The notes under the pieces were generated by a model that did not search any database, was not told the origin of the DNA, and was given only the letters and a program-made list of their open reading frames with translations. The position numbers and the translations under genes are program-made. From positions 1 to 64,000 of the IMG/VR virus record IMGVR_UViG_3300028393_000001: a DNA stretch of 64,000 nt; one strand, given 5' to 3'. This stretch comes from a virus. Below, one piece after another: positions 24,894 to 38,583 of the stretch (its first letter is position 1; each line of letters starts with the position of its first letter).

Positions 24894-25325
24894 TTAGGTA
24901 AAGGCGCTAAAAAACGAGCCTGTAGTAACCTTAGTAGTGCTAGTTGTACCTTGAAATTTATCCCGTTGTATATCAACCCAACGTGCTTGACGTTGCACTG
25001 ATTTAGGATCAGGCGCTTTGCCGAATATCTTATGTAAATTGACGTGGTGTTTATTACACAAAGTCCGTACCAGATCATAAAGCTCTGTTCGGTGCTCTGC
25101 TATAAACTCGTCCCTTACAGCCAATATTCCTTCATCGGTAGAAATATCATACTTTTTTACTTTAGCCCATACATCTAGCAGAATTGTAATAGAGTGAAAG
25201 TGATGTAGCTCAAGATCTTCCCCAGTACCACAAATATAACAGTGGTCCTGTTTATCGTACGCTGCTTTAGCTTTATCTCTTACGTGTTTAACCGGAATTC
25301 GTTTATTACCAGTATTTTTTGCCAT
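24894..25325 (-). CDS. T5-like nicking HNH endonuclease
   Basis: CYICG..EDLELHH...TLC.KHH..LH. Same position (between portal and terL) as in T5. Confidence 0.8.
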   Translation of the reverse strand: MAKNTGNKRIPVKHVRDKAKAAYDKQDHCYICGTGEDLELHHFHSITILLDVWAKVKKYDISTDEGILAVRDEFIAEHRTELYDLVRTLCNKHHVNLHKIFGKAPDPKSVQRQARWVDIQRDKFQGTTSTTKVTTGSFFSAFT

Positions 25326-29769: not shown

Positions 29770-30207
29770 TCATGGTCTAGCAAACTCTCCATGTAGTTCC
29801 ATTGCTTTAATATCATAAGCTTCTTTAGCTTGTTCCGGTGTATCAAATGTTCCTAAATGATACTCCTTACCTTTATGCTTTATACGCGCTTGAAATTTAT
29901 TTCTATGCGCTTTTACACCTTTAGGATATATTCCAAAACCTTTTGAATTAGCAGTGTTTTGTAAAGGTGTAGCAAGACGTAAATTTTCAATCCTGTTATT
30001 ACATCTATTACCGTCTATATGATCAATTACATACCCGTCAGGTATCTTACCTTTTAACATTTCCCATATTATTCTATGTACTCGATAAGTTTTATGATTT
30101 ATGTGTGCTTGTATATATCCATGCATATCAACATATCCATAAACATGATTAGTACCTTTTTTTAATAGTAATCCATCATCATATTCGCATATATCATTAA
30201 AATTCAT
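29770..30207 (-). CDS. HNH homing endonuclease with AP2 domain
   Basis: HRIIW, IDHIDG.R.NNRIENLR and C-terminal HLGTF.T.E.A..AY...A..LHGEFA. Own promoter TTGACG-N17-TATAAT at 30229-30257. Confidence 0.9.
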   Translation of the reverse strand: MNFNDICEYDDGLLLKKGTNHVYGYVDMHGYIQAHINHKTYRVHRIIWEMLKGKIPDGYVIDHIDGNRCNNRIENLRLATPLQNTANSKGFGIYPKGVKAHRNKFQARIKHKGKEYHLGTFDTPEQAKEAYDIKAMELHGEFARP

Positions 30208-30550
30208 AGTATCTCCTAAGTTTTATCAATTATATCATGTAAGGTGGGCCACGTCAATGTGTAAATTTCAAATGGTGATTGGCACCGAAAAGCTGGGTCA
30301 AAAATTTTAAATGTATCGTCTGCGATAGGGCCCCACACATAGTTGCCAAAATGGAGTCTAATAACCCCCCTATAAGCATACCCACCCTGGCAATGGTCAC
30401 CAAAACTGTAAATGTAGCATATTAACAACGCTTTGTAAAGTTATGTAAAGATGCCCTGGGATGTGTCGCGCGACCATAATTCATGTATAATAAACACATA
30501 GACAGCAAAGATAGACAGTAAGTAACAACCTAACCAAAAAGGAAATCATT

Positions 30551-30916
30551 ATGGCCCGCACTACTACCCGCTCTCCCTTAGCACAATTCATGGCTACATC
30601 CCTAAAGCGCGCACGTTCACGCGATAAAATGGCTGGCCGTGACTCTGACGCTCGCGTTACTGTAGATTATCTCTGCGGTTTGTACTATGGCCAAAATGGT
30701 AATTGTTTCCATACTGGTGAGACTATGACCTTGGAGCGTGGCCTAGAAGATGGCGCGGTATGCCCTACACTATGCACATTCGACCGCATCGATAATGCTA
30801 AAGGTTATGAAATTGGTAACATTGTTCTAGCGTGTGATGGTATTAATCGTATGCGTTCGGATATGCCCTTAAAACAATTCCGCGCACTATGCAAGCGCAT
30901 AGGTGCAATGGTATAA
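30551..30916 (+). CDS. His-Me finger (HNH-like) nuclease-type protein
   Basis: Q.G.C..TG..M...DRIDN.KGY..GNI.L.C..IN.M motif. RBS AAGGA. Confidence 0.6.
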   Translation: MARTTTRSPLAQFMATSLKRARSRDKMAGRDSDARVTVDYLCGLYYGQNGNCFHTGETMTLERGLEDGAVCPTLCTFDRIDNAKGYEIGNIVLACDGINRMRSDMPLKQFRALCKRIGAMV

Positions 30917-31086
30917 TGAAAAGGGGAAACCCTTTTCATATTTAATAGGATTACTTAAAATGAAACAATCATACACTACTAAACAAATTGCAGAATTTGC
31001 ACAATTTTGCAAACGTCACGGGATTACATTTAATAACCTTATTGAATATAATTCTGCAATAGAACAATATTACTATGGTTGATATG

Positions 31087-31185
31087 ATTGCCACAATGCA
31101 TACTATTGCCACAATGCATACTATTGCCACAATGCATACTATTGCCACAATGCATACTATTGCCACAATGCATATTATTGCCACA
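31087..31185. repeat. 18-bp tandem repeat ATTGCCACAATGCATACT (5 units plus a partial)
   Basis: Units start at 31087, 31105, 31123, 31141, 31159 (one mismatch) and 31177 (partial). Confidence 0.95.
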
Positions 31186-31333
31186 TCGACAATAGTTAGC
31201 ATAATGCATATAGTTACTATACTAAGTACGATTGTTAATTTGCGCCTAGTACCTATATGATTTTCTAGCGCAAAACCTTACTGTTGACAGGGTTATTGGT
31301 GTGTGTTATAATTAAGACTTAGAAGGATACAAT

Positions 31334-31625: not shown

Positions 31626-31955
31626 ATGATTCACCTATTTGATTATGCTAACTACTTAGGCATCACAAAGCCTATCGTTATCAAAATTAATACAAGATCT
31701 CATAAGCATTGGGAGGGCTCATACTTACCTAAGTATAACGCAAAGGGTAAGCTGATCGAGCATCGCATTACTATATGGCTAGATGGTATGAATCGCGACT
31801 TTGATACTGTACTAGCCCATGAGCTTATCCATGCTTATCATGAGGAAAATGGTATCCAGGAATGGCATGGTAAACAATTCAAGAAAGCTGCCAAATTGAT
31901 GACTGAAAATTTCACCTGGTTAGAGGGTGTTTACCGAAAGGGTATTGATACCTAA
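31626..31955 (+). CDS. SprT-like zinc metalloprotease
   Basis: LAHELIH...HG..F motif. Confidence 0.7.
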   Translation: MIHLFDYANYLGITKPIVIKINTRSHKHWEGSYLPKYNAKGKLIEHRITIWLDGMNRDFDTVLAHELIHAYHEENGIQEWHGKQFKKAAKLMTENFTWLEGVYRKGIDT

Positions 31956-31961
31956 AATGAT

Positions 31962-32102
31962 AATGGTCGTCAAGACCATTATGGTCGCTTCAAGCGACCA
32001 CTTACCAGCCCCCATACCCACCATGTAGCAACCTGGCAAAGGTTGCCATTTTGGTAAGGGTTGAGGCGCCAAAATTATACCCCTATCCTGGCCCTTTGTC
32101 AA
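31962..32102. repeat. Intergenic element copy 1 (palindromes plus leftward promoter)
   Basis: Degenerate palindrome 31962-31980, ATGGTCGCTTCAAGCGACCA 31981-32000, and minus-strand TTGACA-N17-TATAAT at 32074-32102. Confidence 0.85.
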
Positions 32103-32169
32103 GCGATTTATTAATAACCTATTTTTTGTAGGGTTGTTTTATCTGCTGATTCTAGGCTATAATAAACCC

Positions 32170-32343
32170 ATGACAACGACAAACCCCCAACCCTTAAATG
32201 ATATCGAATTAGGCAATGATTTTTTTGCCATCGTGGGTGTACCCTGCGAACAACAACGCGCTCCAATGGATGCTGAAACAGCGGCGCGTGATGCTATAAT
32301 GCGTAGGCATTATGCAGAATCTTATGGCGATATTTGTAATTGA
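32170..32343 (+). CDS. Hypothetical protein (probably leaderless)
   Basis: ATG lies 6 nt after TATAAT (32158-32163). Confidence 0.5.
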   Translation: MTTTNPQPLNDIELGNDFFAIVGVPCEQQRAPMDAETAARDAIMRRHYAESYGDICN

Positions 32344-32441
32344 AAGGACTTTATCATGTATATATTAAATATCATTTTGTCAATCATTGTCGGCCTGGCA
32401 GTTGTTGGCTTTGTTATGTATGTTCAAAAAATTGATGGAGA

Positions 32442-32675
32442 ATGGCTATGATTTTATCTTTTATGGAATTGGCAATTGATTCTAGACAATTCAATGGTCG
32501 AAGCTCTCAAATGGCGCGCGCGCTGGTAATTAATAAGGCTTGTGATTATATCATGCACTACCTATACCCTCACAAGCATGAAGAAAATGTCGTACCCCAT
32601 GCCGATTTGGCAATTGTTAATTTTGTGACTGGTACTGTTGAATTACCCGTTACGCTTCACCCTGAGTATCATTAA
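32442..32675 (+). CDS. Hypothetical protein
   Basis: 77-aa ORF with GGAG RBS. Confidence 0.5.
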   Translation: MAMILSFMELAIDSRQFNGRSSQMARALVINKACDYIMHYLYPHKHEENVVPHADLAIVNFVTGTVELPVTLHPEYH

Positions 32676-32816
32676 AATGAAACTGAAAAAGATTTCTAAA
32701 AAGACAATTGAAAAATTCCAGAAAAAATTACAAGAAAAAATCAGGGGACGCGAAAAAAATCGCCAACAACACGAAAAAATGTGATATAATTTAATTTTAC
32801 TTGAAAGGCCTTTATT

Positions 32817-33200
32817 ATGACTATCCTATCCTTCACCTCTGCCAATGGCGGCGTTTCCCATGTTGTCAAGGCAACTACTGCCAAGGCAGTAAATTACACC
32901 CCCGAACAAACCGCCAAAATGGTTAGCGAATATCAATCGGGCAATACTGTTGAATCAATTGCCGAATCCCTTGGCAAAACTGTTCGTTCTGTTGTTGCTA
33001 AACTGTCCCGCGAAGGCGTATATCAGGCTAAAACCTACGTTAGCAAATCGGGCGAACCCGTTGCCAAAAAGGACATGGTTGCCGACGCTATTGGTAATGT
33101 TCTCGGTTTGACCGAAGCAGAAACCGAATCGCTTACCAAAGCGAATAAGACTGCGCTTTCGAAAATCTTTGCTGCTTTGGCAAATAGCAAACCCGTTTAA
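32817..33200 (+). CDS. T5 A2/D3-like DNA-binding protein, paralog 1
   Basis: NYT.EQT..MV..YQSG..VE.IA..LGKTVRSVVAKLSREGVY HTH-like block plus KKD.VAD.I...ESLTKANK. Resembles T5 A2/D3 as recalled. Confidence 0.65.
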   Translation: MTILSFTSANGGVSHVVKATTAKAVNYTPEQTAKMVSEYQSGNTVESIAESLGKTVRSVVAKLSREGVYQAKTYVSKSGEPVAKKDMVADAIGNVLGLTEAETESLTKANKTALSKIFAALANSKPV

Positions 33201-33246
33201 GGTTTGGAAACCCTGGTCAATTTGACCAGGGTTTCTTTTTTGGTAT

Positions 33247-33327
33247 ATGGTCGCTTCAAGCGACCATTACTATTTTGGTAAGCATTGGGGCGCCAAAAAT
33301 TATACCACAAAAACCTGGCTGTGTCAA
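33247..33327. repeat. Intergenic element copy 2
   Basis: Palindrome 33247-33267 and minus-strand TTGACA-N17-TATAAT at 33299-33327. A terminator hairpin at ~33207-33240 precedes it. Confidence 0.85.
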
Positions 33328-33383
33328 CTTATTTATTAATAACCTACTTTTTGTAGGGTCATTATATATGGTAGAATTTACCC

Positions 33384-33740
33384 ATGAAAACGCTACAACA
33401 CAAAATTGATTTTGTTACCAATGGCATTTGGCTTGCGCTAATGGAATCATATCCAAAATTGATACGATTCGATGCTCCAAAAATTGTGCTATGTAATCGG
33501 CTTACCCGCACGGCAGGCAAAAATTATCAGGAAGAAAATCGTATTCATTTAGGCAATAAATTCTTCGCTAATAATCATAAAGCTATGATGCTGGAAATTT
33601 TGCCGCATGAAATAGCGCATCAGGCCGATTTTAATTTATTCGGCGTATATGAAAAACATGGTGGGCATGGCCCTAATTGGTGTGAAATCATGGTAAAATT
33701 AGGCTTACCCGCTAATCGTTATCACTCACTCACAATATGA
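33384..33740 (+). CDS. SprT-like zinc metalloprotease
   Basis: RL.RTAG, PHEIAH and HG.NW..IM..LG motifs. Confidence 0.8.
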   Translation: MKTLQHKIDFVTNGIWLALMESYPKLIRFDAPKIVLCNRLTRTAGKNYQEENRIHLGNKFFANNHKAMMLEILPHEIAHQADFNLFGVYEKHGGHGPNWCEIMVKLGLPANRYHSLTI

Positions 33741-33949
33741 TAAAAATCACTTCATGGCTTGGCACAATCGCTTCAATCATTGGGGCTTTTTTGGTAGCAT
33801 CGCAAATTGTATTCATTGGCTATTTGGCATTTATTGTCGGGTCGGCATCATGGTTGATTGTGGGTGTAGCGCGTAGGGATTCATCACTAATCGTTTTGAA
33901 TTTCGTTTTCTTTTTGGCTAACATATTGGGGATATATAATGCTTGGTAA
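33737..33949 (+). CDS. Small 3-TM membrane protein
   Basis: Three hydrophobic segments, ATGA coupling. Confidence 0.65.
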   Translation: MIKITSWLGTIASIIGAFLVASQIVFIGYLAFIVGSASWLIVGVARRDSSLIVLNFVFFLANILGIYNAW

Positions 33950-34108
33950 AATTTTGGTAACTATTTTCTTTCCTGTAATTGCCCTCTTAGATTGGACAAT
34001 TTCAAATTATCCGCTTCGCGACTTCTGGAAAAATAACCGTGAAGCATACCTAGATTTTATGAAAGATTAATCAAAAAGGCAACTATTGCCTTTTTGAAGG
34101 CACCAAAA

Positions 34109-34164
34109 ATGGTCGCTTCAAGCGACCATTATCATTTTGACTACTATCGCCTGGGGCTGGTCAA
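34109..34164. repeat. Intergenic element copy 3 (promoter part degenerate)
   Basis: Palindrome ATGGTCGCTTCAAGCGACCAT at 34109-34129, followed by TATCATTTTG. Confidence 0.8.
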
Positions 34165-34214
34165 TAGAAAAATTCAATCGCAAAACCTGGCCGTGTTCAT
34201 GCTATAATTCGCCT

Positions 34215-34688
34215 ATGAAAAACATTATCATATTTGACCTAGACGAAACTGTCATAAATTCGTCACATCGCACACCTAATAACCCTGATGGCACTCTAAA
34301 TTTAGATGCCTATATTCGGTTACATAATCCCGAAAATGTCGCAAAAGATACATTATTGCCAATTGCACAATTAATGCGTGCTCGGTATGCAATGGGCGAT
34401 TATATCATTGTTTTGACTGCTCGCGATATGAAACCATGCGATTATCAATTCTTAAATGATTACAATTTGCCTTATCATAAAATAATGTCGCGTGACCAAG
34501 CAACGGCAAAGCATTACAAAATGAAAGACGGCGAATATAAAATGCGCTGGATTAAACCATTCTTAAATTTAAAACAATTTGCAGGTCGGCAAGTTGTTAT
34601 GTTCGATGATGCTAAACCCGTAAAATCAGCACTCAGAAAATTATTTCCTGTTTTATGTGCTCACAAAGTAAATGCACGTTTTGCGTGA
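34215..34688 (+). CDS. HAD-superfamily phosphatase / nucleotidase
   Basis: IIFDLDETV (motif I), VLTAR (II), K (III) and MFDD (IV). Start ATG 34215. Confidence 0.85.
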   Translation: MKNIIIFDLDETVINSSHRTPNNPDGTLNLDAYIRLHNPENVAKDTLLPIAQLMRARYAMGDYIIVLTARDMKPCDYQFLNDYNLPYHKIMSRDQATAKHYKMKDGEYKMRWIKPFLNLKQFAGRQVVMFDDAKPVKSALRKLFPVLCAHKVNARFA

Positions 34689-34721
34689 TATAATAACTCT
34701 CTTATTAACTGAAAGCATATA

Positions 34722-35420
34722 ATGGCCAAAAAACAATTTTTCGCGATTCTCGACACCGAGACTACAATTTCGGATACTGTTGCCGATTTTGCAATTATTA
34801 TCGTTGACCGCGAAGGCAAAATTCACAATCAATGCGCGGTACTGGTTGCTGGTCATTATGGCAATCATGAGTTATTCCATGATAAAAATGCAAATGATAT
34901 TTGGGGGTACGCTGGTTTAGAAAAACGTAAAGCAAATTATGCGACAATGCTAGAATCGGGCAATCGTATGCTTGCTTCAACTAATGCTATCAATAAATGG
35001 ATTAATCAAGCAATTGGCAAGTATAACCCCTCATTGACTGCTTACAATTTGGCATTCGATTTGGCAAAATGTGCCAATACTGATATTGATTTATCAGGCT
35101 TTACTTCCAAATTTTGCCTATGGCAAGCGGCGGTAGGTAATATCTGCAATAAAAAAGCATTCAAGCAATTTGCCCTCGATAATCACGCATTTAATAATGC
35201 GACTAAACTAGGCAATATGACATTCAAAACCAATGCCGAGATTGTATGCGGTTTTATTAATAATAATTTCATTGAGGAACCACACACCGCCTTAGAAGAT
35301 GCCCGCGATTTTGAACTGCCTATTTTGACTACAGTTATCAAAAAACGCAATTGGCGCGATAATATCACTGCTTACGCTTGGCAAGATTTTCAAGTAAAAA
35401 ATCACTTTACCGCAAAGTAA
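34722..35420 (+). CDS. DEDDh 3'-5' exonuclease
   Basis: ILDTETT, AYN.AFD and HTALEDA motifs. Confidence 0.85.
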   Translation: MAKKQFFAILDTETTISDTVADFAIIIVDREGKIHNQCAVLVAGHYGNHELFHDKNANDIWGYAGLEKRKANYATMLESGNRMLASTNAINKWINQAIGKYNPSLTAYNLAFDLAKCANTDIDLSGFTSKFCLWQAAVGNICNKKAFKQFALDNHAFNNATKLGNMTFKTNAEIVCGFINNNFIEEPHTALEDARDFELPILTTVIKKRNWRDNITAYAWQDFQVKNHFTAK

Positions 35421-35457
35421 AACGGTATCCAATTTGGCGATGGTCGCCAGGTTGGAT

Positions 35458-35625
35458 ATGGTCGCTTGAAGCGACCACAATTTTAATCGGGTGTAATGGG
35501 GTAATTTTTCGGGTAATGGGGTAATAACTTTCATTATAGAATTGGCAATGGTCGCTTGAAGCGACCCTTATCATTTTGATAAGGGTCTGCGCCAAAATTT
35601 TATCATAAGCCTGGCCTGGTGTCAA
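35458..35625. repeat. Intergenic element copy 4 (two palindromes plus leftward promoter)
   Basis: Palindromes at 35458-35477 and 35548-35566. Minus-strand TTGACA-N17-TAAAAT at 35597-35625. Confidence 0.85.
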
Positions 35626-35712
35626 TAGGGATAAACCCTTATGTTGTATTTTTTCACACTTGCCCATTGGTGGGGTTTTCTGCTATAATAAATTTTTAAA
35701 TGAAAGGCTATT

Positions 35713-36342
35713 ATGATTAAATCTATCGGCGATAATTATGTGAGATTCGCAAAATCTGATTTTTCAGAATTACGGCGTCAATTGTCAATTCTTGAAGGTT
35801 ATATTTTTGGCAAGAATAAATCTGCAATGACTGCGGATTATTGGGGCGTATGCGAAGAAGGTGGCGAAGAAGATACCATTGTCAAATTGGCAGATGGTTT
35901 GACGGGTAAACCCTTGGGCATTACTTGGCAAAAAATCGTGAAACATTTTCCTGCACTAATTGCAGAATTAGACAAGCATGGTTTGCACTACTATATCGGC
36001 AAAAATTATGTTGGTAATTGGGGCGTTCATCGTCATATTTATGATGAATCTTCAACAATGAATTTGTGCCTGCTAGTAAACGGCAATAATGGCGGGACTG
36101 TTAACTTTCACGAATTTGACAATGATTCAGAATTTTTTGATGAATTGTCCGATGACCATATTTTCGATTTGCATCATGCATCGTTCGAAGAAGGAACAAT
36201 TACAGAATCGGTAAAGATTAAAGACGGCGACTGCTTCTCTTTTAATACTGGTCAATGGCACTCGCACATTGTCCAAGGCGAAAAAGCAGAATTATTTTTG
36301 CTACACTTTCGTGATGCCACTTCTGTACATGATTTAGCATAA
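35713..36342 (+). CDS. Hypothetical protein, possible cupin/2OG-Fe(II)-type double-stranded beta-helix
   Basis: HRH motif early and FNT..WHS late, typical of DSBH metal sites. Confidence 0.5.
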   Translation: MIKSIGDNYVRFAKSDFSELRRQLSILEGYIFGKNKSAMTADYWGVCEEGGEEDTIVKLADGLTGKPLGITWQKIVKHFPALIAELDKHGLHYYIGKNYVGNWGVHRHIYDESSTMNLCLLVNGNNGGTVNFHEFDNDSEFFDELSDDHIFDLHHASFEEGTITESVKIKDGDCFSFNTGQWHSHIVQGEKAELFLLHFRDATSVHDLA

Positions 36343-36381
36343 AACAAGGGTTGCCAAATTGGCAACCCTCTTTTTTCTATA

Positions 36382-36460
36382 ATGGTCGCTTTAAGCGACC
36401 ATTGTCATTTTGGCAAGGGGCTGGCGCCAAAATTTTACTCTAACCCTGGCCCTTTGTCAA
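36382..36460. repeat. Intergenic element copy 5
   Basis: Palindrome 36382-36402 and minus-strand TTGACA-N17-TAAAAT at 36432-36460. Confidence 0.85.
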
Positions 36461-36596
36461 TAGGTGTTTACCCCTATGTTGTATTTTCACAAAAATAAAA
36501 AATAACTTGAATTCCTGGCCTTTTGTCTATATAATAGAGGCTTAGCAGGCAGTAAAGGGAAACTGTAAAAAATCCCTGATTCTCTTGGAGTGTACT

Positions 36597-36923
36597 ATGG
36601 CAGAAAAAGCCGTCAATTATACCGCAGAACAAACTGCGGTAATGGTGTCCGATTACCAGTCGGGTGTAGGTGTGGAACAAATCGCTTTGTCGCTTGGCAA
36701 ATCGGTGCGTTCGGTGGTTGCGAAATTGTCTCGCGAAAAAGTATATGTTGCCAAAACGTATACTACCAAAACGGGCGAGGCCGTTGCCAAAAAGGATGCC
36801 GTTGCAGACGCAATCGGCGCGGTGCTCAAGCTCACTGAGGCTGAGACCGAATCCTTGACAAAAGCCAATAAAACGGCTTTGGCTAAAATTTTTGCGGCGC
36901 TTGCCAATAGCAAGCCCATGTAA
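36597..36923 (+). CDS. T5 A2/D3-like DNA-binding protein, paralog 2
   Basis: Closely similar to 32817-33200. GGAG RBS before ATG 36597. Confidence 0.7.
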   Translation: MAEKAVNYTAEQTAVMVSDYQSGVGVEQIALSLGKSVRSVVAKLSREKVYVAKTYTTKTGEAVAKKDAVADAIGAVLKLTEAETESLTKANKTALAKIFAALANSKPM

Positions 36924-37004
36924 AATTTGGCAATGAAAGCCCGCTTAGGCGGGTTTTCTTTTTCCGCAATAGTTGCCTTTTTGGTAATGGTCACCAGGGT
37001 GATA

Positions 37005-37217
37005 ATGGTCGCTTCAGGCGACCACTATTTTTGCGAATCGTTGCCTTTTTGGCGACTACCACTAAATCGATAACGGTCGCTTCAAGCGACCGTTATTTTC
37101 GCATGCTTAAAGCATGCGCCAGTGGCTGCGCCAGTGGTCATATGAAATTCTGCTACCTCGTGTGCCCTGCGCCAGTGGCTGCGCCAAATTATAACAGAAA
37201 GACTGAGGGCGTGTCAA
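37005..37217. repeat. Intergenic element copy 6 (two palindromes, TGCGCCAGTGG repeats, leftward promoter)
   Basis: Palindromes at 37005-37024 and 37070-37096. Minus-strand TTGACA-N18-TATAAT at 37188-37217. Confidence 0.8.
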
Positions 37218-37381
37218 GTAAATAATTTCTTACTTGAACCTGGTAGTCGGTTCCGCTATAATAATTACTTAGACAGGCAGATAGGGCCAAACGGGTACAA
37301 GAAGCGCAAAATTTCTTATTTGACTCTCAGCCCCTAATGCCTTATAATTTATTCATAAACAAACAAACCAAAGGAAGCAAA

Positions 37382-37693
37382 ATGACCGCAAAAATCGTAA
37401 ACTACACCGCAGACCAAGTTGAGAAGTTGGTCGCAGACTACCAGTCGGGCCAATCGGTCGAGATGATTGCTGACAGCCTAGGCAAGTCGGTGCGCTCGGT
37501 TGTGGCTAAGCTCAGTCGTGAAGGCGTGTACCAAGCTAGGAGCTACGTCTCTAAGACTGGTGCAAAGCCTGTTAAAAAGGACCTGGTTGCTGACCAGATT
37601 GCCAATATCCTCCTGCTTACTGAAGCAGAGGCAGATAGCCTGACCAAGGCTAACAAGACCGCCCTGACTAAAATCCTGGCTGGCTTGCAGTAA
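37382..37693 (+). CDS. T5 A2/D3-like DNA-binding protein, paralog 3
   Basis: Same family (GKSVRSVVAKLSREGVY). AAGGA RBS before ATG 37382. Confidence 0.7.
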   Translation: MTAKIVNYTADQVEKLVADYQSGQSVEMIADSLGKSVRSVVAKLSREGVYQARSYVSKTGAKPVKKDLVADQIANILLLTEAEADSLTKANKTALTKILAGLQ

Positions 37694-37724
37694 ACGCCGC
37701 AGTTTAGGGTCAAGAAATATTCAC

Positions 37725-37753
37725 TTGAATCATGACCCTAAACCTTGTATAAT
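37725..37753 (+). promoter_or_regulatory. sigma70-type promoter of the large non-coding transcript
   Basis: TTGAAT-N17-TATAAT, overlapped by the inverted repeat GTTTAGGGTCA/TGACCCTAAAC. Confidence 0.75.
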
Positions 37754-37760
37754 AGATTTA

Positions 37761-38468
37761 TGATTAGGCGATAACATAATAAAAATTATAATTCGCCGAC
37801 TCATAATGCAGGAATCGGAAAAGTTAGTAGCTGGTTCGATGCCAGCCCCGTCATCTTAGGGTGCCGGGTATGCTTATGTAGGTAAAGCGACCACTTCCAG
37901 CCTGCAGAGAGGTACCGATCCTCCAAAAACGGCTGTGGTTGGGGGTAACATCTGAAGATAGGAACCCTGGGGTTACTAACACCATCATGAAAAGTTAGGG
38001 GAGAAAGAACTTCCGATCAAATACAGCTATCATCTAACAAAGATCTGGGTTTCATCCAGCCATGTAGGTATGGACTCCTACTAGCGCACGGACTTATACA
38101 CGTAGAGTCATAAAATATACGCGGTCGAATAGCCTATGTTACAGGCTTGACTAGGCAACTTTGAAGCATACTCCAGCTAACCACTGGCTAAGGCGCTCAG
38201 GTTTAGGGTCAGGTAAGGGGTGTGGTGCCCTGAGCCAACATGGAGAGTACAATGACAGTAACTATCCCAAACAAAAAACTGTTACTGAGGAAACCAGCAG
38301 AGAAAGGCAGTATGTAAGCTCCGGCTGTGTACGTTCTCTATAGGATAACCGATTAAAATTAGCACAGTTAGATAAGCTCTGACGTTCTCTACTACCATAT
38401 AACCCCTGACAAGGTTGCGGCTAGAGGCTCACCTTACGACTGTAGGCCTGTCAAGCCTTAGCTAATCA
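37761..38468 (+). ncRNA. Putative large structured non-coding RNA (~710 nt)
   Basis: Own promoter and terminator, no credible ORF, complementary 5'/3' ends, a T-loop hairpin and many nested helices. Confidence 0.65.
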
Positions 38469-38471
38469 ACT

Positions 38472-38505
38472 AGCCCCTACGGAGTCATGCCCGTAGGGGC
38501 TTTTT
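38472..38505 (+). terminator. Rho-independent terminator
   Basis: AGCCCCTACGG-loop-CCGTAGGGGCT followed by TTTT. Confidence 0.85.
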
Positions 38506-38546
38506 GTTGCTTAAAAATAAAGAACCTGCAGAATTCTGGACGTCCG

Positions 38547-38583
38547 GCGCCAAAATTATACAGTGCCTGAGTGAGTTTGTCAA
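38547..38583 (-). promoter_or_regulatory. Leftward promoter of the repeated GCGCCAAAATTATA class
   Basis: TTGACA-N17-TATAAT-TTTGGCGC on the minus strand. Confidence 0.75.

Follow-up and report, generated by a model that had tools for sequence, protein, structure and literature searches.

This locus raises the question of why a phage would carry six near-consensus promoters, all on one strand and all leading into the same GC-rich start, with no gene for them to drive. An earlier note on the window (the whole 64,000-nucleotide stretch of DNA that was analysed) had described these minus-strand sites, and we found all of them (6/6) at the positions it gave and none in shuffled sequence. Across the whole 123,962-bp genome, the pattern TTGACA-N17/18-TA(T/A)AAT-(T)TTGGCGC, with a gap of 0–2 nt, occurs exactly six times, always on the minus strand (0 forward, 6 reverse) and between 32.07 and 38.58 kb; its strict form gives 4 matches against 0.00 expected over 100 shuffles. 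Four of the sites (32074–32102, 33299–33327, 37188–37217 and 38555–38583) match TTGACA/TATAAT at 12/12 positions, accounting for half of the eight perfect promoters in the genome, while those at 35597–35625 and 36432–36460 match at 11/12 because their -10 reads TAAAAT. The spacers, of 17 or 18 nt, lie within the 16–18 nt expected of sigma-70-type hexamers, and TTGGCGC follows each promoter, with GGCGC starting 3 nt after the -10 in four sites, 4 nt after it in the site at 33290 and 2 nt after it in the site at 37181. The description of these promoters as having no gene to drive also stood, as no minus-strand ORF of at least 20 codons with a convincing ribosome-binding site begins within 250 nt of the six starts, the one exception being a 28-codon ORF with a TTG start and a weak AAGG. 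These observations support a single family of promoter-grade sites without a gene, present far beyond chance. The sites, numbered as elements 1 to 6, and the features around them are:

31960–32001: two overlapping palindromic hairpins downstream of element 1, one a variant copy, ATAATGGTCGTCAAGACCATTAT, the other a GGTCGCTTCAAGCGACC copy.
32066–32102, minus strand: element 1, with -35 TTGACA at 32097–32102, -10 TATAAT at 32074–32079 and TTGGCGC at 32066–32072; aimed at hairpins at 32028–32046 and 31960–32001 and then at the 3' end of an SprT-like gene (31626–31955).
33247–33267: palindrome ATGGTCGCTTCAAGCGACCAT, with more copies at 34108–34130, 35459–35477, 35550–35566, 36381–36403, 37006–37024 and 37070–37096.
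33290–33327, minus strand: element 2, 12/12 with a TG extension and TTGGCGC at 33290–33296; aimed at the palindrome at 33247–33267, a plus-strand terminator (33206–33236) and the 3' end of DNA-binding paralogue 1 (32817–33200).
34131–34166, minus strand: decayed seventh copy, following the palindrome at 34108–34130, with a -35-like TTGACC and the CCAGCCCCAGG spacer kept and, by comparison with 35546–35630, the -10 and GGCGC deleted.
35589–35625, minus strand: element 3, 11/12 with -10 TAAAAT, convergent to the gene at 34722–35420; a hairpin (GACCCTTATCA..TGATAAGGGTC, minus strand) lies directly 3' of GGCGCA, followed by the palindrome at 35550–35566.
35660–35689, plus strand: an example of a divergent partner, the next unit's promoter, TTGCCC-18-TATAAT with TG; further plus-strand divergent promoters lie at 36507–36535, 37234–37262 and 37320–37348.
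36424–36460, minus strand: element 4, 11/12, convergent to the gene at 35713–36342 and aimed at the palindrome at 36381–36403 and a two-way terminator (36346–36370).
37116–37177, minus strand: repeat array with CACTGGCGC at 37116, 37128 and 37169, in addition to the TTTGGCGC of the element 5 promoter itself; akin arrays (TTTTCCACTGGCGC, TTTTGCACTGGCGC) adjoin the equivalent element in relatives.
37181–37217, minus strand: element 5, 12/12 with an 18-nt spacer and 2 nt from -10 to GGCGC, then three more CCACTGGCGC repeats and the palindromes at 37070–37096 and 37006–37024; convergent to DNA-binding paralogue 2 (36597–36923).
37725–37753, plus strand: promoter of the RNA region.
38547–38583, minus strand: element 6, 12/12, opposite the plus-strand terminator (38472–38501) of the ORF-less RNA region; to its right lies no plus-strand gene or promoter, and its placement is alike in relatives.

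All six sites are convergent to the 3' end of a target. The real genes are on the plus strand, as had been noted, throughout 30.5–37.7 kb, where plus-strand ORFs have matches (SprT-like for two ORFs; HAD/PNKP, weaker) and homologues in many related contigs. Elements 1–5 point into copies of the conserved palindrome GGTCGCTT(C/G/A)AAGCGACC, 21–105 nt downstream, and element 6 faces the 3' terminator of the RNA region at 37.76–38.5 kb, both in agreement with the earlier reading. Its further statement that several of the promoters meet a convergent terminator applies to two of the six (starts 32102 and 36460), where a hairpin resembling a terminator, its T-run on the promoter strand, lies no more than about 110 nt away; two others have weak ones at 150–186 nt, and the remaining two have none.

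The element is conserved in related phages: matches to the strict pattern number 234, spread over at least 119 viral contigs and grouped on one strand in clusters that reach six copies. Among 79 loci picked solely by a neighbouring DNA-binding-protein gene, and not by the promoter, 77 contain the element, with 446 copies in all, every one antisense to that gene (0 sense). Flanking ORFs of at least 80 aa in the relatives show the same strict orientation, both downstream of the element (173 on the opposite strand, 9 on the same strand, 45 ambiguous) and upstream of it (165, 14 and 32, respectively). GGCGC lies 0–4 nt from the -10 in 352 of 412 unique promoters matching at least 11/12 on the element strand, compared with 0 of 144 on the gene strand; among the remaining 60 element-strand promoters, the 25 listed resemble ordinary gene promoters, mostly with an A/T tract upstream and several with a start codon following. 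When elements were selected by promoter and hairpin alone, 195 of 202 carried GGCGC. Conservation is highest in the -35 and -10 hexamers (sets of 206 and 183 related elements), and downstream of GGCGC a logo of related elements shows no conserved positions between copies or between phages. Together with the -10, GGC forms an inverted repeat in 137 of 302 elements of the relatives; this repeat is absent from all six copies of the present phage, and its role is therefore dispensable.

What had been called an invariant leader is constant as a motif, but is better regarded as belonging to the DNA around the start site: among 364 unique elements GGCGC begins 3 nt (205), 1 nt (101), 2 nt (37), 0 nt (17) or 4 nt (4) from the -10, so it could not in every case form the same 5' end of an RNA. 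Stable-RNA ('stringent') promoters such as rrnB P1 and tyrT have a GC-rich discriminator, and the likeness to them that had been pointed out is a fair analogy, as both combine consensus-like hexamers with a GCGCC block near the start. The elements differ in that in most copies an extra 3 nt separate the GC block from the -10 and no stable RNA gene follows. Nor is the motif a copied host promoter type or a cellular stable-RNA promoter motif, since bacterial genomes totalling 596 Gb gave few and dispersed occurrences, 55 stretches that are mostly single and in unrelated taxa, only 4 of which contain two or more copies. It is also absent from T5 and from a Vibrio Demerecviridae phage.

An inverted island made up of the cassettes is present in this genome and in 3/3 relatives that are complete or near-complete, and in each the elements are co-oriented with the genes on both island flanks, toward terminase, portal and capsid. 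There is one element per transcription unit, giving 6–9 per genome. A strong gene-strand -10 lies within 230 nt behind 258 of 364 elements, in 123 of those 258 at a distance of 50–69 nt. On the other side, a stem of at least 7 bp (median 12 bp) begins a median of 2 nt past TTGGCGC in 169 of 206 elements, compared with 53 of 412 random positions. These hairpins fold better on the gene strand in 121 elements and on the element strand in 77, and contain 375 G-U pairs on the gene strand versus 219 on the element strand, so they look like the cassettes' own 3' hairpins, and the promoter would therefore start exactly where the 3' structure of the cassette stops.

The best explanation, judged from sequence and arrangement, is that the six sites are sigma-70-type promoters of a conserved, lineage-specific class, for which we suggest the term GGCGC-start counter-promoters. 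We tentatively propose, with somewhat less than even confidence, that they bound or damp each early unit and that GGCGC is their control point. Each counter-promoter would sit at the 3' end of one unit of the inverted early-gene island, with the next unit's promoter behind it and facing away, and would be convergent on the hairpins that close the preceding unit. If these very strong minus-strand promoters fire, their polymerases would collide with those reading the cassette, and a counter-RNA, should it extend that far, would be complementary, end to end, to the 3' hairpin region of the cassette mRNA; collision and complementary RNA together could then delimit each unit and reduce or shut off its expression. 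The likely control point, GGCGC at the start (joined in many relatives by the -10/GGC inverted repeat), may respond to DNA topology or be recognised by a DNA-binding protein of the phage. The antisense tuning of each cassette that had been offered as one possibility is still the best fit to the conserved geometry, namely the opposite-strand flanks, the 446 to 0 orientation and the island layout. Several considerations count against the proposal: antisense silencing alone would need neither an invariant GGCGC nor exact hairpin abutment, a constitutive consensus promoter directed against the phage's own early genes looks wasteful unless regulated, and only about a third of the elements have an own-strand terminator that could set the length of the RNA.

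Known cases of a gene damped by an antisense or convergent promoter at its 3' end are the OOP RNA of lambda, which acts against cII, the face-to-face pR and pL of phage 186 and the sar of P22. The elements share with such promoters a position downstream of a gene and facing it, an RNA that would be complementary to the 3' end of the message and a setting in a phage regulatory region. They differ in being one per unit, all near-consensus, with an invariant GGCGC and abutting hairpins in more than 100 phage contigs, and in that their predicted RNA product is neither conserved nor clearly terminated. Antisense promoters at gene 3' ends, among them engineered ones, have been described as a means to tune expression (PMC4731013), and polymerase is described as capable, after termination, of remaining DNA-bound and initiating again in the opposite direction (PMC6978322).

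A different, rather unlikely reading is a docking or topology module at the DNA level, in which the hexamers would hold RNA polymerase and the GC block would tie opening to local supercoiling. The element and the weaker extended -10 promoter of the next unit would then form a coupled divergent pair whose members feed each other negative supercoils or polymerase, with RNA as a by-product. This would agree with the unconserved downstream RNA sequence, with the preferred divergent spacing (although the 50–69 nt peak partly reflects duplicated intergenic DNA, not independent events) and with a GC block that is invariant at the element start, in contrast to the A/T-rich starts of ordinary promoters in these genomes; discriminator G/C content is also described as setting supercoiling sensitivity across bacteria (PMC8422995). 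Element 6, however, lacks a divergent partner, in 4/6 copies here the -10 and the GC block are three T's apart, and the exact pentamer GGCGC retained in 195/202 elements is more than a plain GC clamp would require.

Less probable again is that the composite of hairpin, counter-promoter, inter-promoter block and forward promoter is kept mainly as homology for shuffling early cassettes. Blocks of about 60–150 nt are indeed repeated between cassettes and common to phages that differ in cassette content, and one copy here has decayed via internal deletion. Homology alone nevertheless accounts neither for conservation peaking at the hexamers and GGCGC nor for the 446 to 0 orientation. A parallel proposal exists for T4-like phages and their promoter-early stem-loop (PeSL) motifs. 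A PeSL promoter transcribes the gene that follows it in its own direction, whereas the conserved consensus promoter of the present elements runs antisense to its neighbours on either side and drives no gene, so that the elements depart from PeSLs in this respect. What they do have, like PeSLs, is a repeated intergenic stem-loop with an early promoter in a variable early region; the PeSL combination is described as a sigma-70 early promoter between small variable early genes and a likely substrate for cassette shuffling (PMC4122927; PMC2839356), and PeSLs as composites of terminator and promoter through which exchange takes place in hyperplastic regions (PMC4122927). A role in recombination is compatible with the counter-promoter reading and does not exclude it.

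Trans-acting small hairpin RNAs, acting as decoys or against host defence, are improbable, and the multicopy small-RNA family envisaged in the earlier note is poorly supported. Each RNA would consist of a 5' GCGCC and a long hairpin, in keeping with the strong promoters, with the long, mostly perfect hairpin a few nucleotides from the start in those 169 of 206 elements and with a canonical own-strand terminator within 300 nt (median 87 nt) in 132 of 364 elements of the relatives, compared with 47 of 395 random positions. However, the hairpin sequence varies between copies and between phages, stability and G-U use favour the opposite strand, only 22 of the 169 hairpins have a T-run on the element strand, and a search of Rfam gave no family match.

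It is equally doubtful that the elements are a tandem battery for long main-strand transcription that would cross the island, continue into the genes for packaging and structure and silence the early genes in passing. Such transcription could serve late expression, with antitermination of the kind known at lambda PR', or transcription-driven genome entry, as at the T7 A1–A3 promoters. The co-orientation with both flanks, here and in 3/3 relatives, the lack of element-strand T-runs in most hairpins and the lack of a canonical terminator within 300 nt in about two-thirds of the elements would all suit this reading. Against it, untranslated RNA is a normal target of Rho, and the structural block has near-consensus promoters of its own at 30257, 29757, 25385, 16604 and 9392.

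We give similarly little credence to GGCGC as the target of a phage nicking enzyme, by which virion DNA would be nicked in the non-template strand inside the melting region of each promoter, so that the promoters could fire solely from incoming DNA. The phage family is related to that of T5: the terminase is 48% identical to those of the ~113-kb Demerecviridae Vibrio phages, and the ORF at 24894–25325 is 46% identical (E 5e-41) to a protein at the same position in Vibrio phage 234P1 whose label, 'nicking endonuclease', is an annotation. T5 nicks are described as confined to one strand (PMC10644984) with the major consensus R/GCGCRGG (PMC3517423), and the T5 record has an 18-nt palindrome directly after the terminal-repeat nick; the elements likewise lie on one strand, with an invariant pentamer that shares the GCGC core. 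However, none of the six promoter sites (GGCGCCTC, GGCGCCCC, GGCGCAGA, GGCGCCAG, GGCGCAGC and GGCGCCGG) fits RGCGCRGG in full, and only the repeat at 37169 (GGCGCAGG) does. T5 nick sites, moreover, are dispersed and not clustered, lie outside promoters and, in 3/4 of the other consensus sites read, have no adjoining palindrome.

The suggestion in the earlier note that the sites act as a sink for RNA polymerase is neither favoured nor disfavoured by these observations.

A geneless backward promoter with an invariant GGCGC recurs in more than 100 related uncultured freshwater phages, and it is therefore a conserved control element; that the six sites of this genome belong to such a lineage-wide class is the new result.

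The six minus-strand sites at 32066-38583, described in an earlier note as TTGACA-N17/18-TA(T/A)AAT followed by (T)TTGGCGC, are present as stated. Four of them match TTGACA/TATAAT perfectly (12/12) and two have a single mismatch (11/12), in each case before TTGGCGC. If a gap of 0-2 nt is allowed, the whole genome holds exactly six copies of the pattern, every one on the reverse strand; 100 shuffles of the window yielded none. Four of the genome's eight perfect promoters belong to these elements, which we call GGCGC-start counter-promoters; the other near-consensus promoters mostly carry an A/T-rich upstream tract and an A/T-rich start, several with a start codon within ~25 nt downstream. No credible ORF was found behind any of the six, and a seventh copy, after 34130, has its -10 and GGCGC deleted. 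No RNA family was detected at or beside the elements, either in an Rfam gathering search of the window or in one by E-value over 31.8-38.9 kb. As restriction sites, GGCGCC and GCGC are neither avoided nor enriched, their observed counts being near the Markov expectation.

The 123,962-bp record, with an end overlap of 127 bp and a GC content of 37.7%, belongs to a tailed phage whose terminase shares 48% identity with the terminases of ~113-kb Vibrio phages from Demerecviridae (T5 family), and whose DNA is found in freshwater and lake metagenomes. Genes lie on the minus strand at 0.7-30.2 kb and 39-54 kb, with a plus-strand island in between (30.5-37.7 kb), the genes of which we refer to as cassettes or units:

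17.5-27 kb, minus strand: structural block of terminase, portal, protease-capsid fusion and major tail protein
55-64 kb: tRNA and tmRNA cluster
island, plus strand: two SprT-like proteins
island, plus strand: HAD/PNKP-like phosphatase, a weaker match than the SprT-like proteins
island, plus strand: 232-aa protein, common to many relatives
32817-33200, 36597-36923 and 37382-37693, plus strand: three paralogous proteins of about 105-127 aa, 69-80% identical (the DNA-binding protein family)
37760-38505, plus strand: ORF-less region between a promoter (37725-37753) and a terminator (38472-38501)

The cassettes of three relatives of ~100 kb, each complete or nearly so, are grouped in a block of 6-7 kb whose orientation is opposite to that of the genes on either side; each genome holds 6-9 elements, all in the direction of the flanking genes, toward terminase, portal and capsid, as in the present genome. 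A blastn search of 31.8-38.9 kb against cultured phages gave no match. Among contigs of at least 40 kb, the island is cut by the contig end in 15 of 29, many of these stopping a few hundred nt past the DNA-binding gene, within the conserved RNA region; since assembly breaks in sequence shared between strains could explain such ends equally well as physical genome ends, we make no claim about genome termini. The island also contains an 18-bp tandem repeat, ATTGCCACAATGCATACT (5.5 copies, 98% match, 31087-31185), in a small plus-strand ORF (31075-31260), which represents either a hexapeptide repeat or DNA iterons. In three island genes, the ATG lies just 6 nt past a TATAAT/TAGAAT -10 (32158-32172, 33372-33386 and 34203-34217), so that their mRNAs would be leaderless; relatives show similar starts.

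Scanning 2.9 million viral contigs with the same pattern returned at least 119 stretches with at least 234 matches, often with 2-6 copies per contig and, among the matches listed, always on a single strand within a contig. Among these listed matches, ORFs of at least 80 aa downstream of the element are on the opposite strand in 173 cases, on the same strand in nine and ambiguous in 45, and those upstream in 165, 14 and 32 cases, respectively. Additionally, 79 loci were fetched by homology to the DNA-binding protein, so that the motif itself was not a selection criterion. A relaxed form of the element is present in 77 of the 79, with 446 copies opposite the strand of the DNA-binding gene and none on the gene's own strand. 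GGCGC lies 0-4 nt past the -10 in 352 of 412 unique promoters of at least 11/12 on that opposite strand, and in 0 of 144 on the gene strand; among the remaining 60 promoters, the 25 inspected resemble ordinary gene promoters. When sites were picked by promoter quality and a perfect stem of at least 8 bp instead, 195 of 202 carried GGCGC, so that the pentamer is under no less constraint than the hexamers. Bacterial genomes totalling 596 Gb gave 55 stretches with the pattern, only four of which have at least two copies, mostly in short metagenome-bin contigs, and neither T5 nor Vibrio phage 234P1, the two cultured Demerecviridae examined, has its relaxed form; the element is therefore not a type of host promoter, nor is it shared throughout the T5 family. 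Mimicry of host promoters was rejected, given how rare and scattered the pattern is in bacterial genomes. No description of the motif or the arrangement was found in the literature searched.

Across relatives, the anatomy of the element is regular. Of 206 elements, 172 have a spacer of 18 nt and 26 one of 17 nt, and a stem of at least 7 bp (median 12 bp, loop 4) starts a median of 2 nt past TTGGCGC in 169 of the 206, as compared to 53 of 412 random positions. Only 22 of these 169 hairpins are followed by a T-rich tail, and the sequence downstream is otherwise not conserved. With the first 70 nt of both strands folded, the gene strand came out ahead in 121 cases, the promoter strand in 77 and neither in 11, and G-U pairs numbered 375 versus 219. 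This bias makes the hairpins look like 3' structures of cassette mRNAs, at the exact end of which the counter-promoter would begin. Canonical terminators within 300 nt are found on the promoter's own strand for 132 of 364 elements (47 of 395 random segments) and on the gene strand for 112 of 364 (64 of 395). Behind 258 of the 364 elements there is a strong gene-strand -10 within 230 nt, in 123 of them at 50-69 nt from the -35, so that the element is one half of a divergent promoter pair. Fixed places are held by an element adjoining an array of CCACTGGCGC-type repeats (here 37116-37177) and by another just past the terminator of the ORF-less RNA region.

In 137 of 302 unique elements, the -10 together with the bases that follow it as far as GGC recurs inside the spacer as a perfect inverted copy of at least 8 nt; shuffled spacers never showed this. 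Arm lengths have medians of 9, 10 and 11 nt at -10-to-GGCGC distances of 1, 2 and 3 nt, and both arms change together, a pattern that suits a maintained hairpin or cruciform no less well than a protein operator. The inverted repeat is missing from all six elements here, and the spacer of the elements examined in a close relative, L183, is similarly non-palindromic; it is therefore not essential.

A candidate binder of the elements is the DNA-binding paralogue, whose gene is their most constant companion in related contigs. Its structure model (pLDDT 77.5) consists of two three-helix units; a Foldseek search against the PDB gave no match at E <=0.001, the best weak rows being bipartite DNA-binding domains, and a sequence profile search of the PDB with the family returned nothing meaningful. 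Pfam matches to GcrA are weak and below cut-off in 18 of 26 family members, as is the PHROGs match of the paralogues to a 'D5-like regulator', and tblastn against cultured phages found no match.

In contigs from four lake metatranscriptome runs (four studies), the ORF-less region is by far the best covered part of 31.5-38.9 kb, with a depth of ~38-455 compared to 0-6 over neighbouring genes, and variants among the contigs indicate that relatives are present as well. Zero cover was seen in the bins that span five of the elements with the bases just downstream, and a trace (0.17-0.85) in that of element 5; these are assembled contigs, from which short RNAs would be missing, and we draw nothing from this cover, which is neutral on transcription at the elements. 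The only Rfam match near the elements is a sub-threshold one to YrlA (Y RNA-like) at 37806-37910 (33 bits, E 3e-4). Around the -35 of the RNA-region promoter there is an inverted repeat, TTTAGGGTCA ... TGACCCTAAA (37703-37742), with related sites near 38207, 38716 and 38868; copies of TTAGGGTCA recur nearby and, in relatives, directly upstream of last-type elements. These sequences may represent a second operator motif.

Judging by hexamers, spacing and conservation, promoter function appears to be the only economical reading of this DNA, and with their strictly antisense position where each unit ends, right against its 3' hairpin, the elements point to the preceding unit as their target. The antisense tuning of cassettes proposed in the earlier note is plausible on these grounds; of its other suggestions, a multicopy small-RNA family is unlikely, because the predicted RNA is neither conserved nor clearly terminated, and a sink for host RNA polymerase is neither favoured nor disfavoured by these results. 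We tentatively favour, as a possibility still short of probable, that counter-transcription bounds and damps each early unit, with GGCGC as a control point. Polymerases from element and cassette would collide head-on, and the element RNA would be complementary to the 3' end of the cassette message. Such a mechanism gains plausibility from 3' antisense promoters described as a means of tuning genes (PMC4731013) and from terminated polymerase, which can restart in reverse from nearby sites (PMC6978322).

There is real room for the element acting as DNA, through docking, coupling to supercoiling or insulation. What leaves this room is that the pentamer does not vary, that a palindromic variant exists and that the forward promoter lies at a preferred distance; the supercoiling sensitivity of GC-rich start regions is established (PMC8422995). 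A bold but live alternative is that GGCGC is a nick site of the T5 type. T5-like phages carry site-specific nicks in one strand (as stated in part of PMC10644984), with the major-nick consensus R/GCGCRGG (from a section of PMC3517423); in the T5 record, minus-strand consensus sites coincide with known major-nick positions, and an 18-nt palindrome directly follows the terminal-repeat nick. The elements have the GCGC core, the one-strand rule and the adjoining hairpin in common with these sites, but no promoter copy has the full consensus, and T5 nick sites are not promoters: the left terminal repeat of T5 has no GGCGC-start promoter, and the other nick-consensus sites examined have no promoter in context and, in three of four, no adjoining palindrome. 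Two genes were considered in this connection:

24894-25325, minus strand: 143-aa HNH-motif protein, just downstream of the terminase large subunit
64281-64847 of the full record (G000), plus strand: 188-aa cytosine-5 methyltransferase-motif protein, just past the window (also L266:1399-1965)

The first is 46% identical to a 'nicking endonuclease' in the same place beside the terminase of Vibrio phage 234P1, although that name is an annotation only. We consider it very improbable that G/GCGC is cut by a T5-type nicking enzyme of the phage, with the nicked promoters firing only from the incoming, unreplicated genome. Packaged DNA would then have its non-template strand nicked where each promoter melts, leaving the promoters pre-opened; once the nick was sealed or the DNA copied, the GC block would keep the promoters shut. 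If true, the nicked elements would be an injection-specific timer counter-transcribing the early cassettes, and the long-unexplained nicks of T5-like phages would have a function. On either side of the island lies a further HNH or endonuclease VII-like gene (29770-30207, minus strand; 30551-30916, plus strand). In T5, the first-step-transfer region likewise has many repeats and palindromes that are conserved but untranslated, according to 10.1101/866236, a likeness to the island in style, with homology not shown. The methyltransferase-like protein, which matches PHROG 757 'DNA methyltransferase' (E 2e-43) and Pfam DNA_methylase at cut-off and is too short for the usual target-recognition domain, was weighed as a GCGC modifier and dropped.

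Antisense and convergent promoters are known singly from phage switches. Read as counter-promoters, the elements fail at least one defining feature of each of the nearest known systems: unlike these single promoters, they would yield an RNA neither conserved nor clearly terminated; compared to the PeSL composites of T4-like phages, their promoter faces in the wrong direction; they are not a cellular promoter type, in contrast to GC-discriminator promoters; and they do not fit the nick consensus of T5. What we assign as new here is the class, counter-promoters that form a conserved module, present in several copies and marked by a specific start motif.

An entire early-gene island is built here of units each closed by a near-consensus, geneless counter-promoter with a five-base invariant start, a design kept in more than 100 contigs of uncultured freshwater phages, distant relatives of T5. 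This implies a general means, so far undescribed, by which the early transcription units of phages are bounded, timed or insulated. At ~40 bp plus the hairpin, the element is compact. A GGCGC that proved to be a switch, through a protein, topology or a nick, would make it a new regulatory part, and also a marker by which early regions could be annotated in phage genomes from metagenomes.
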